This document shows positions 31,305-64,000 of a DNA stretch of 64,000 nt, in pieces. The stretch spans positions 125 to 64,124 of the forward strand of contig CAYUQR010000015.1 in the NCBI GenBank assembly GCA_964446825.1, read 5' to 3'. A program made the position numbers and the translations under genes. Within the stretch, counting starts at the first letter, position 1, and each line of letters starts with the position of its first letter. The notes under the pieces were generated by a model that saw only the letters and a program-made list of their open reading frames with translations, was not told the DNA's origin and made no database searches. The DNA is from an uncultured Rikenellaceae bacterium (GTDB lineage Bacteria > Bacteroidota > Bacteroidia > Bacteroidales > VadinHA17).

Positions 31305-32087
31305 TTACTCCTGGGGTTTTTCCTCTGCAGCTGTTTCAGCAGTGGTATCTTCCGCAGCAGGTGCTTTATCCTGTTCTTCTGCAACAGGTGCCTGATCCTG
31401 CACTTCTGCAACAGGTGCCTGATCCTGTTCTTCTGCAACAGGTGCCTGATCCTGCACTTCTGCAACAGGTGCCTGATCCTGTTCTTCTGCAACAGGTTCC
31501 TGATCCTGCACTTCTGCAACAGATGCCTGATCTGGTTCTTCTACAGGTGCGGCATCTGGTTCTTCGACAGGTGCGGCATCTTCAGCTGTAACCTCTTCTT
31601 TGTCTCCTGCTGCAGCTTTAGCTGCAAGTTCTGCATTTCTCTTTGCAAGTTTTGCGGCCCTTGCTTCGTTAATGTCCCTTTCAACTATGAGTCTCTTACC
31701 CATTTCATCATCCTGCGATTTCTCAAGACCAGACTTCTTGGATTCGATCTTTGCCTCATTCTGTTTCATCCACTCCTCAAACCTCCTGGTGGCTTCTGCT
31801 TCATCAAATGCCCCTTTTCTCACACCTTCGAGAAGATGCTTCTTGATCAATACACCTTTATAAGACAGGATAGCTCTACATGTATCTGTAGGTATTGCGC
31901 CATTTTGCAGCCAACCCAGCGCTTTATCGAAATCGAGTTCGATTGTTGCGGGGTTAGTAACCGGATTGTACGATCCGATCTTTTCAATATATCTGCCATC
32001 CCGTGGCGACCTGCTATCTGCTACCACAATGTGATAGAAGGCCAGTTTTTTACGGCCTTTTCTAGCTAATCTGATTTTAACTGCCAT
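31305..32087 (-). CDS. rpsP: 30S ribosomal protein S16 with a long acidic repeat-containing C-terminal extension
   Basis: N-terminus [42 protein letters not shown] is canonical S16. The 260-aa total includes AAPVEEPD x2 and Q(A/E)(P/S)VAE(V/E)QD x7. Confidence 0.93.
31353..31577 (-). repeat. Intragenic tandem repeat (24-bp x2, then 30-bp x~7, alternating as 60-bp units) in the rpsP 3' region
   Basis: + strand CTGATCCTG(C/T)(A/T)CTTCTGCAACAGGTGC is reiterated through 31370..31530. All three overlapping reading frames stay open here. Confidence 0.9.
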
Positions 32088-61881: not shown

Positions 61882-62971
61882 CTATTTGCCGGCAAATTCC
61901 ATAAGGTATGATTTTATGAATGCATTCAGGTCCCCATCAAGTACGGCCAGAACATTGCTTGTCTCGCGGTCTGTGCGATGATCCTTGACCATTTTATAAG
62001 GATGCAATGTGTAGGATCTTATCTGCGAGCCCCATTCTATCTTTTTCTTTTCGCCTTCAATCTTTGCCTGTTCCTCCTGCTGCTTCCTGAGCTCGAGTTC
62101 ATAAAGCTGTGATTTCAGGATCCTCATTGCGTTTTCCTTATTGTTAAGCTGAGATCTTGTTTCCTGGTTTTCAATGACAATGCCTGTAGGCTGATGCCTC
62201 AGCCTTACGGCAGTCTCAACTTTATTAACATTCTGACCTCCTGCCCCGCTCGACCTGTAAGTTTCCCAGGTAATATCCGCGGGATTAACCTCAATCTCGA
62301 TATTATTATCAACAAGAGGTGAGATGAATACCGATGCAAATGTGGTCTGACGTTTTCCCTGCGCATTGAAGGGCGATATCCTTACAAGGCGGTGTACCCC
62401 GTTTTCGCTTTTAAGATAACCATAGGCCCTGTCACCATCGATCTCAAGAGTCACTGTTTTAATACCAACCTCATCTCCGGGCTGGTAATCGAGTTCCTTA
62501 ACTTTATAGTTATTTCTTTCAGCCCACCTGAGATACATTCTCATGAGCATTGCTGCCCAGTCGTTGCTTTCTGTGCCGCCTGCTCCCGAGTTTATTTTAA
62601 GTATTGCGCCCAGCTGATCTTCCTCTTTCTGCAACATATTGCGTACTTCGAGGTCCTCAATCATCGACAGGCAGGTTTCATACTGGTTATCAATATCCGC
62701 TTCAGTAGCTTCCCCTTCCCTGTAAAAATCGTTTAAAACAACCAGGTCATCAAGTGCTGAATTGACTTTATCAAAATCATTTGTCCAGCTTTTTATCAGA
62801 GCAATACCCCTGAGCAGCTCTTCAGCTTTTTTCGGATCGTTCCACAAACCAGGCTGCTGAGACAGGTTTTCTTTTTCCGCAATCAGTTCAAGCTTGCCTT
62901 CAATGTCAAAGATACCTCCTCAACGCATCGCGGCGTTCCAATAACCCTTTTATCTGTTCGTTGGTTGTCAT
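61882..62971 (-). CDS. prfB: Peptide chain release factor 2, requires programmed +1 frameshift
   Basis: ORF0 from ATG 62971 reads [21 protein letters not shown] then TGA (62908..62906). The +1 frame continues [28 protein letters not shown] into the 321-aa track ORF, which carries the SPF and GGQ motifs. Confidence 0.95.
62905..62920 (-). promoter_or_regulatory. RF2 autoregulatory +1 frameshift site (AGGAGG-TAT-CTT-TGA-C)
   Basis: On the - strand, AGGAGG (62920..62915), a 3-nt spacer and CTTTGAC (62911..62905) match the canonical prfB shift cassette. Confidence 0.9.
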
Positions 62972-63089
62972 CTGGTCAGTTTAAATTTATGCAAAATTAA
63001 GATTTTATATCATACTTATTAGTAATGAGGCTTAATGAGATATTTTTATCTTTGAGCCGAATAGTTTTATAAGTATTAGATATAAGATT

Positions 63090-63503
63090 ATGATACGGTT
63101 AATAATTTGGTGCAAGCCATTTGCCAAATACCTTCTGGCGGCCTGGATAATAGCTGTTATCATTGTATCGTCAATTCCTCACCTTCCCACATTAAAAATT
63201 CATACAGCAAAGTCTGATATCAGGCTTGACTATTTCATTCATTTTTGCGAATACGGGATAATGGCTTTTATGGCCTTTCTTTCCTTTGCCGGCAAGGAGT
63301 TTAAAATGAATTACAAAAGATGGATCCTTCTTACCCTGGGGCTCATTCTTTTTGCTGTCCTTGATGAGTTTCATCAGAAGCTCATTCCAGGAAGGTCATT
63401 CAATACAAAAGACATTTTTAGTAACATCTCCGGAATACTGGCCGTATTGGTTTTCTGTATTATTATTTTCAGGATGATCATTCATAGAGAGTTTGATCAT
63501 TAG
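63090..63503 (+). CDS. VanZ-family membrane protein
   Basis: 137-aa ORF with 4 TMs and the motif DEFHQKLIPGRSFNTKDIFSNISGIL, typical of VanZ-like proteins. Confidence 0.8.
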   Translation: MIRLIIWCKPFAKYLLAAWIIAVIIVSSIPHLPTLKIHTAKSDIRLDYFIHFCEYGIMAFMAFLSFAGKEFKMNYKRWILLTLGLILFAVLDEFHQKLIPGRSFNTKDIFSNISGILAVLVFCIIIFRMIIHREFDH

Positions 63504-63536
63504 TTAACACATTACTCTTATTCACAAAATATAAGT

Positions 63537-63628
63537 GGAACCGCTCCGCGGTTCAAAAAACATTATCGCATTAATTTGGCTAGCATTGATGGAATCGCTC
63601 CGCGATTCATACGGAATGCCAAATATCG
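63537..63628 (-). repeat. About 1.4 diverged copies of the 53-bp repeat in inverted orientation, abutting the array
   Basis: Reverse complement reads GAATCGCGGAGCGATTCCATCAATGCTAGCC...TTTTTTGAACCGCGGAGCGGTTCCAC, collinear with the unit GAACACCGGAGGTATTCCATCAATACTAGCA. Hairpin stems differ but stay complementary. Confidence 0.7.
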
Positions 63629-64000
63629 GAACACCGGAGGTATTCCATCAATACTAGCATAAAGGATACAATCTATAATTCGAACACCGGAGGTGTTCCA
63701 CCAATACTAGCATAAAGGATACAATATATTTTTTGAACACCGGAGGTATTCCATCAATACTAGCATAAAGGATACAATCTATAATTCGAACACCGGAGGT
63801 GTTCCACCAATACTAGCATAAAGGATACAATATATTTTTTGAACACCGGAGGTATTCCATCAATACTAGCATAAAGGATACAATCTATAATTCGAACACC
63901 GGAGGTGTTCCACCAATACTAGCATAAAGGATACAATATATTTTTTGAACACCGGAGGTGTTCCACCAATACTAGCATAAAGGATACAATATATTTTTTG
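63629..64000 (+). repeat. Tandem array of 53-bp units (at least 7 copies, order A-B-A-B-A-B-B), truncated by window end; non-coding
   Basis: Unit A is GAACACCGGAGGTATTCCATCAATACTAGCATAAAGGATACAATCTATAATTC. Unit B is GAACACCGGAGGTGTTCCACCAATACTAGCATAAAGGATACAATATATTTTTT. Each starts with the hairpin GAACACC-GGA-GGTGTTC. Unit starts: 63629, 63682, 63735, 63788, 63841, 63894, 63947. Confidence 0.95.

Follow-up and report, generated by a model that had tools for sequence, protein, structure and literature searches.

The 64,000-nt window analysed here (positions 125-64124 of contig C15 in G000, the assembly of an uncultured Rikenellaceae bacterium) ends inside a non-coding array of 53-bp hairpin units. 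With a probability of about 75%, we read this array as a cluster of single-stranded DNA hairpins resembling repetitive extragenic palindromes (REPs), and as belonging to a gene for a Y1/HUH enzyme that lies just past the break in the contig, is related to IS200 (subclass 1.2) and resembles the REP-associated tyrosine transposases (RAYTs). Because a conspecific contig carries that gene on the opposite strand, the array in the window would be the inverted array flanking the 3' side of a RAYT-like gene that has fallen into an assembly gap. An initial annotation, made from the letters of the window alone, had described the array and offered three options for it, namely protein-binding iterons, a tandem array of small or structured RNAs, and the edge of a mobile or replicative element, and each of these is taken up below where the relevant evidence is given.

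Structurally, Tandem Repeats Finder resolves positions 63629-64000 into 7.0 copies with a period of 53 (90% matches) or 3.5 copies with a period of 106 (98% matches), in agreement with the seven units in the order A-B-A-B-A-B-B, and the 106-bp higher-order period, of the initial annotation. The two versions of the unit differ exactly as it had listed, with GGTATTCCAT versus GGTGTTCCAC and CAATCTATAATTC versus CAATATATTTTTT, and the inverted, diverged copies that it had placed upstream are also there, with hairpins at 63538-63554 and 63592-63608. Past the window, C15 continues for 233 bp, all B units, and ends within the array (C15:64357, equivalent to window position 64233), which bears out the suspicion that the array may be what ended the assembly; in total, ~11.4 units are visible on this contig. 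Folded as DNA, the B unit reaches −5.4 kcal/mol (z −2.83), and the A-unit hairpin (for example, 63629-63645) is weakened by a C.A mismatch and is missing from the minimum-energy fold. The segment 63535-63680, across the junction of the inverted copies and the array, folds at −26.5 kcal/mol (z −4.67), with none of 200 shuffles folding as well. No reading frame is open across the array, in which only open reading frames of 40-44 amino acids are listed, so a coding array can be rejected and the repeat is non-coding, as had been proposed. A CRISPR array was rejected as well, since the units abut without spacers and the "variable" part consists of only two alternating versions.

The units belong to a wider family, defined by a hairpin of the form (G)AAC-NN-C GGA G-NN-GTT(C), a box with the consensus CCAYCAATRCTAG and a linker of ~20 nt of variable sequence (alignment consensus, nGAACCGCGGAGCGGTTCCATCAATnnTAG). 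The box, a candidate site of recognition or cleavage, occurs in internal units, but the hairpin that closes an array usually lacks it; arrays usually end in a hairpin followed by CCAT(AAT). When one genome from each prokaryote species was scanned with a degenerate 28-nt pattern that left the inner stem positions free, 18 loci with arrays of two to ~30 units were matched, all in metagenome-assembled genomes (MAGs) of uncultured Bacteroidales, some of them labelled Rikenellaceae. The family is confined to this narrow group and is patchy within the genus. Pattern matches number 24 in G000, 28 in G082 and 2-11 in the other positive genomes, counts that are lower bounds in short-read assemblies, and a reversed-pattern control gave 0-1 matches per genome. 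Larger assemblies of relatives, probably long-read, carry arrays of ~30 units. All family copies in G000 sit at contig ends (C15 end, C145 end, C77 start and C154 start), with the C145 end carrying six units of another 53-bp sequence and a terminal hairpin.

Across this family, the stem changes in sequence while its pairing is kept. Among 101 distinct units, collected with a pattern that did not demand complementary inner pairs, 95.3% of stem cells pair, at least 10 stem types occur, and double-sided changes are found in 63 cells spread over four of the seven stem pairs, as against 12.9 ± 3.0 in shuffled alignments (0 of 500 shuffles reach 63) and at most 3 in slid-partner controls. The C-GGA-G loop and closing pair, as well as two A-T pairs by the foot of the stem, were fixed by the collecting pattern, so that their constancy in the alignment is built in; looser hairpin scans found the GGA loop in nearly all units and GGC loops in the array at locus L014. 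The covariation agrees with the earlier view that complementarity is kept through changes in the stem, and that the structure is under selection, which sets it apart from simple satellite DNA. The non-Watson-Crick cells, with transitions on either arm, split into 12 C.A/A.C and 9 G.T/T.G, that is, with no strand (wobble) bias, and the idea that the variant A mismatch, a G-U pair on the minus strand, hints at RNA finds no echo in the family. Spacing is also conserved: 83 of the 102 adjacent same-strand hairpin pairs, taken from 26 loci with unrelated linkers, lie 51-55 nt apart, and most of the remaining pairs are at double that spacing (~107 nt).

Functionally, the repeats are linked to an enzyme gene. 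At L014, a ~30-unit array runs directly into a short gene whose product has HUH (HIH) and YVLNQKEHH motifs, and tblastn and whole-genome searches recovered orthologues, 59-79% identical to one another, that are single-copy in G003, G005, G007, G010, G012/G070, G077, G082 and G115. Counting these loci and the conspecific contig L053 described below, same-strand units lie 55-120 nt upstream of the Y1 gene in nine of nine loci, and inverted units lie downstream of it in five of the nine. The two-hairpin module found inverted in the window (hairpin, box, linker and second hairpin) also adjoins the Y1 genes of L013 and L053. Within the genus, repeats adjoin the gene in all four sampled genomes that have it, and the gene occurs in no genome with only 0-1 pattern matches.

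The position of the array relative to its neighbours places the C15 break at a site where such a gene is found in relatives. There, the gene order is prfB, a VanZ-like gene convergent with a surface-protein gene, then a gene of 166 amino acids and rnhB. In G000, the surface-protein gene, the 166-aa gene and rnhB are on C145, whose array starts right after the surface-protein stop codon; from this synteny, the ends of C15 and C145 represent the two sides of one intergenic region, and their arrays share the same polarity. At the same site, G007 has inverted hairpins, a ~30-unit array and an orthologous Y1 gene, G123 has a different, class-2-like Y1 gene, and G099 and G131 are empty (~110 bp and ~27 bp, respectively). 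HUH genes may have settled in this intergenic site repeatedly. The G123 gene is a fragment with an MPNHFHGII motif, at ~4511-4786 of L051 (G123:C3).

The initial annotation had suggested searching for the unit throughout the genome and in metagenomes; further family copies were found and, in a scan of metagenome contigs with the B-unit core, two conspecific contigs, L053 and L054 (by blastn, 98.8% identical over 1617 bp and 99.4% over 5072 bp, respectively). Compared with window positions 62700-63640, L053 shows 8 differences in ~940 aligned flank columns, and it crosses the locus. In window orientation, it carries the VanZ-like gene, the inverted module, six units (A B A B B' B'') and, on the opposite strand, a Y1 gene encoding 154 amino acids (L053 386..850), followed by the gene's own same-strand two-hairpin module, two head-to-head units and C-type units identical to those of C145. 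At L053 843-856, the Y1 stop codon falls within the degenerate box of the last unit, which reads CCACCAATACTAA on the array strand and TTAGTATTGGTGG on the gene strand, and the end of the gene and the repeat thus overlap. The stretch carrying the Y1 gene (L053 121-839) has no near-identical counterpart in the G000 assembly and falls exactly in the gap between C15 and C145. In L054, the array takes a third form (A B B' B' B'...), and comparison of the three shows that unit number and composition differ between strains that are ~99% identical. An assembly artefact, which the initial annotation had named as something that would speak against its proposal, does not explain the array: two independent conspecific contigs carry it, with differing unit counts, and it is genuine.

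The enzyme falls on the IS200 side of the Y1 nucleases. The L053 protein scores 92.2 bits against Pfam Y1_Tnp, and the L014 orthologue scores 79.7 bits against the NCBIfam IS200/IS605 transposase model NF033573 (cut-off 55) and 16.6 bits against NF047646, the model for the REP-associated tyrosine transposase or class 2 TnpA-REP (cut-off 80). The closest solved structure is that of IS608 TnpA (2a6m, E 3.7e-9), and, apart from two designed proteins, all structures returned by the PDB search were IS200/IS605-family transposases, with no RAYT among them. The L053 protein contains the motifs DHIHIL, SWQEG and YILNQEVHH, and it is by its length and motifs (DHIH, WQ and Y-ILNQ-EVHH) that the gene is placed in TnpA-Y1 subclass 1.2. 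This subclass has been characterized by a length of ~148 amino acids, the motifs DH[IV]H, WQ and Y---Q--HH, a low copy number and hosts among the Bacteroidetes or Cyanobacteria (Quentin, Siguier, Chandler and Fichant 2018, PMC6006769). The hosts of the present Y1 lineage are all Bacteroidales.

Mechanistically, IS608 and E. coli TnpA-REP are the paradigms of hairpin recognition and cleavage by HUH Y1 enzymes. By analogy with these two, the enzyme would recognize the hairpin in its single-stranded DNA form by way of the loop and the foot, which would stay fixed while the middle of the stem covaries, and it would cut and rejoin close to the CCAYCAATRCTAG box. Arrays would lengthen and shorten by whole units, driven by the enzyme or by slippage during replication between direct repeats that bear hairpins. 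To produce the B-B junction in C15, units must have exchanged somewhere between their tail and position 13, for which slippage and a site-specific cut would serve equally well.

Several observations weigh against assigning the array to such a gene. The classical REP tags (GTAG and CGTC) are absent, and the copy number is low, the 24 matches in G000 falling at three or four loci. The hairpins of variant A are weakened without compensation, which hints at decay in at least part of the units. The G000 assembly holds no copy of the cognate Y1 gene, so for this exact strain the gene's presence is deduced from the conspecific contig, and the one Y1 gene that the assembly does contain, on C57, is only 37-39% identical to the cognate lineage. 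Lastly, G129 (complete, in a single contig) and G131 have a few units without the Y1 gene. With G000 there are thus three genomes that have units but no cognate gene in their sequence, and units can evidently outlive the gene or become separated from it, as orphans.

These observations feed the most serious rival, in which the array is an orphan satellite or variable-number tandem repeat, one continuous array without a gene, left behind by a lost RAYT-like gene and changing by slippage or unequal recombination only. The missing gene in G000, the shared polarity of the C15-end and C145-end arrays, the uncompensated C.A mismatch of the A units and the gene-free units of the complete genome G129 would all be expected of such a relic, and the A/B pattern could be obtained by unequal exchange within the first 13 nt, which are identical between units. 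We nevertheless regard it as unlikely, since in L053 the gene lies between arrays that match those of G000 in their two unit types and in polarity, and a unique segment of ~720 bp between two repeat arrays is just what short-read assembly and binning would lose. An array of structured RNA, with transcribed GGA-loop hairpins acting as a CsrB/RsmZ-like protein sponge, as tandem small RNAs or as stabilizers of mRNA 3' ends, appears considerably less probable still. Its attractions are a GGA loop on a covarying stem, as in CsrA-binding hairpins, and the fact that a Y1 gene placed as in L053 is transcribed towards the array, such that its 3' untranslated region could hold minus-strand hairpins in which the variant A mismatch becomes a G-U pair; in E. 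coli, moreover, REPs act on mRNA ends. But Rfam, searched at a permissive threshold, gave only chance matches and no family for the array, CsrA (PF02599) is absent from G000 while control genomes were positive, and scans for promoters and terminators found no excess within the array and no U-tract after the hairpins. The lack of strand bias in the family, the occurrence of units in both orientations relative to neighbouring genes and the constant partnership with the gene of a DNA nuclease point the same way, and we do not retain the tandem small-RNA array of the initial annotation, although the minus-strand hairpins could still have a secondary role in the 3' end of the Y1 mRNA. One Rfam match, to a microRNA precursor, was spurious and was produced by the head-to-head palindrome, and the promoter scan found no acceptable -35 partner for the TATAAT of variant A.

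Least probable of all, and in our judgement hardly tenable, is that the array forms part of an ordinary insertion sequence of the IS200/IS605 type, whose left and right ends would have been duplicated to give the units, or that it is the iteron or origin array of a plasmid-like element. The protein does exceed the NCBIfam IS200 cut-off, its best solved relative is IS608 TnpA, and a 53-bp period is near five helical turns. Against an insertion sequence, however, the gene is single-copy wherever it is present, and the multi-copy IS200-like paralogues in G007 and G099 belong to different lineages, at 41-44% identity; the flanking hairpins are mutually inverted, where those of IS608 are on one strand, and some units lie far from the gene. 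Against an iteron array, the context is chromosomal, with housekeeping genes (prfB and rnhB) and no replication gene, and changes in the stem sequence that keep complementarity, unlike those expected of a double-stranded binding site, would not be tolerable for a site bound as a specific duplex sequence. The iteron option of the initial annotation accordingly falls, and of its three proposals the edge of a mobile or replicative element comes closest, given the Y1 gene that lies beyond the contig end in L053.

Other Y1 genes in these genomes carry hairpins of their own. The sole Y1/HUH gene in the G000 assembly, which is subclass-1.2-like (C57:265-708, minus strand, with a YIQNQKKHH motif), lies at a contig end, and within C57:1-960 GC-rich hairpins of another family, of the GGCCGTAGGCC type (AAGGCCGTAGGCCTTGCAT, GGGCAAAGCCC, GAGCGAAGCTC and GCCCCTACGGGGC), stand on either side of it; further copies lie at the C132 end. 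G000 seems to hold a second pairing of enzyme and repeats here, and the gene was rejected as the partner of the window array because of its 37-39% identity and its different flanking hairpins (GGCCGTAGGCC and GGGCAAAGCCC). Paralogous subclass-1.2-like Y1 genes at L032 and L033, 46-48% identical to the L014-type gene and 46-49% to the L013 gene, are each followed by their own tandem array, with periods of 153 nt and 52 nt and CCGCGTAGCGG hairpins at L032 (1993-2346) and with four copies of a 137-nt repeat at L033 (2015-2562). In another genus of the family, G031, G044 and G056 (loci L039-L045) carry the same hairpin, here AACCTC-GGA-GAGGTT followed by CCATTATTGTAG, but scattered as single modules over many contigs instead of in arrays; the search for a cognate Y1 gene yielded none above 43% identity in these three MAGs, which are incomplete (74-83%).

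Table 1. Features of the repeat-bearing end of the window (positions are window positions; hp, hairpin).
Feature	Position	Strand	Description and basis
VanZ-like membrane protein gene	63090..63503	+	Pfam PF04892 VanZ, 39.6 bits; left boundary of the repeat-bearing intergenic region
Inverted two-hairpin module	63538..63608	-	hp1-box-linker-hp2; sequence and pattern matches
hp1, GAATCGC-GGA-GCGATTC	63608-63592	-	followed by box CCATCAATGCTAGC at 63592-63579
Module linker, 24 nt		-	between hp1 box and hp2
hp2, GAACCGC-GGA-GCGGTTC	63554-63538	-	terminal; no box after hp2
Head-to-head junction of inverted module and first array unit	63579..63660	.	long imperfect palindrome, REPIN-like foldback
Head-to-tail array of 53-bp units	63629..64000	+	A-B-A-B-A-B-B; Tandem Repeats Finder, contig tail, own-genome DNA search
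Array unit starts	63629, 63682, 63735, 63788, 63841, 63894, 63947		
B-unit hairpin, GAACACC-GGA-GGTGTTC	63682..63698	+	7-bp stem, 3-nt loop; DNA fold, family covariation
Box CCACCAATACTAGC (family consensus CCAYCAATRCTAG)	63698..63711	+	directly 3' of hairpin; alignment consensus
Linker	63712..63734	+	sequence varies between arrays, length constant; hairpin starts 51-55 nt apart

Elsewhere in the window, the minus-strand gene prfB (release factor 2, RF2) is split in 62847-62975 at the classical programmed +1 frameshift site, which reads AGGAGG TAT CTT TGA C on the minus strand, the main open reading frame (61882-62847) continuing in the +1 frame. Tandem repeats of 27/54 bp and 24 bp at 31348-31581 (Tandem Repeats Finder scores 292-332) lie within a coding region.

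If the array does belong to a RAYT-like gene, a further and more speculative step would be that the subclass 1.2 Y1 nucleases represent a second, independent domestication of an IS200-type enzyme into a REP-type partnership, one whose substrate is not dispersed palindromes but a phase-locked tandem array to which the enzyme adds, or from which it removes, whole 53-nt units. The units might move, for instance, as single-stranded circles, excised by cuts at one box and the next and put back in at a box. Such a process would account for the 51-55-nt spacing over unrelated linkers and for the differences in unit number between 99% identical strains, and the arrays would then be enzyme-driven hypervariable loci; we put this forward tentatively, as a reading that we consider unlikely. 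More immediately, subclass 1.2 now has a clear cognate hairpin family, and with it a concrete substrate candidate for an uncharacterized group of enzymes. The arrays also break short-read assemblies and hide the enzyme gene from the bin, and surveys of gene content consequently under-count the Y1 gene.

Among known systems, the REP/RAYT partnership is the standard example of a domesticated transposase that has genomic repeats of its own; such partnerships have been reported for class 2 enzymes and mainly from Proteobacteria. The system described here resembles the REP and bacterial interspersed mosaic element (BIME)-RAYT systems ("REPtrons"; TnpA-REP of E. coli and REPIN-RAYT of Pseudomonas) in having a single-copy Y1/HUH gene flanked by its own hairpin repeats, inverted on the two sides, in head-to-head doublets that fold back as REPINs do, in repeats that occur away from the gene and as orphans, in a patchy distribution within a genus, and in an extragenic hairpin that keeps its complementarity through sequence change. 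That a domesticated Y1 gene may have hairpins of its own is a well-established idea (PMC2817692, PMC5581495), and class 2 systems, in Pseudomonas among others, have REPs clustered head to tail in tandem (PMC3733652). The present system differs from the REP-RAYT systems, however, in that the enzyme is not a class 2 TnpA-REP, its Y motif being YILNQEVHH where the class 2 motif ends in NP; in that there is no 5' GTAG/CGTC tag and instead a 13-nt box 3' of the hairpin; in that the loop is fixed as GGA; and in that there are tens of copies, mainly in phase-locked direct arrays at 51-55 nt, as opposed to ~100 or more dispersed copies per genome and alternating BIMEs. With the IS200/IS605 elements (IS608 and ISDra2) and the gene-less palindrome-associated transposable elements (PATEs), the present system shares the fold family of the protein and, as likely substrates, small imperfect hairpins of single-stranded DNA near a short conserved sequence, whereas its single copy, the lack of a TnpB gene, the mutually inverted flanking hairpins and the long arrays set it apart.

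The BOX elements of Streptococcus pneumoniae (boxA-boxB(n)-boxC) are likewise modular intergenic repeats, with a middle module of ~45-53 bp reiterated head-to-tail in strain-variable number; no nuclease gene associated with them and no covarying hairpin comparable to the present one are known, and they bear no sequence relationship to the present units. Compared with subclass 1.2 itself, the Y1 gene conforms in its length of ~150 amino acids, its motifs, its low copy number, its Bacteroidetes host and its closeness to IS200 transposases without the behaviour of an insertion sequence. It departs from the published account, in which the subclass is generally without terminal or REP-like secondary structures (PMC6006769), in that hairpins, often in tandem arrays, flank all nine loci of one lineage as well as the three paralogous lineages. 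What differs here from the hairpin-bearing Y1 systems already established is the combination of an IS200-like subclass 1.2 enzyme with a GGA-loop hairpin, a box on its 3' side, a low copy number and phase-locked arrays of ~53 nt.

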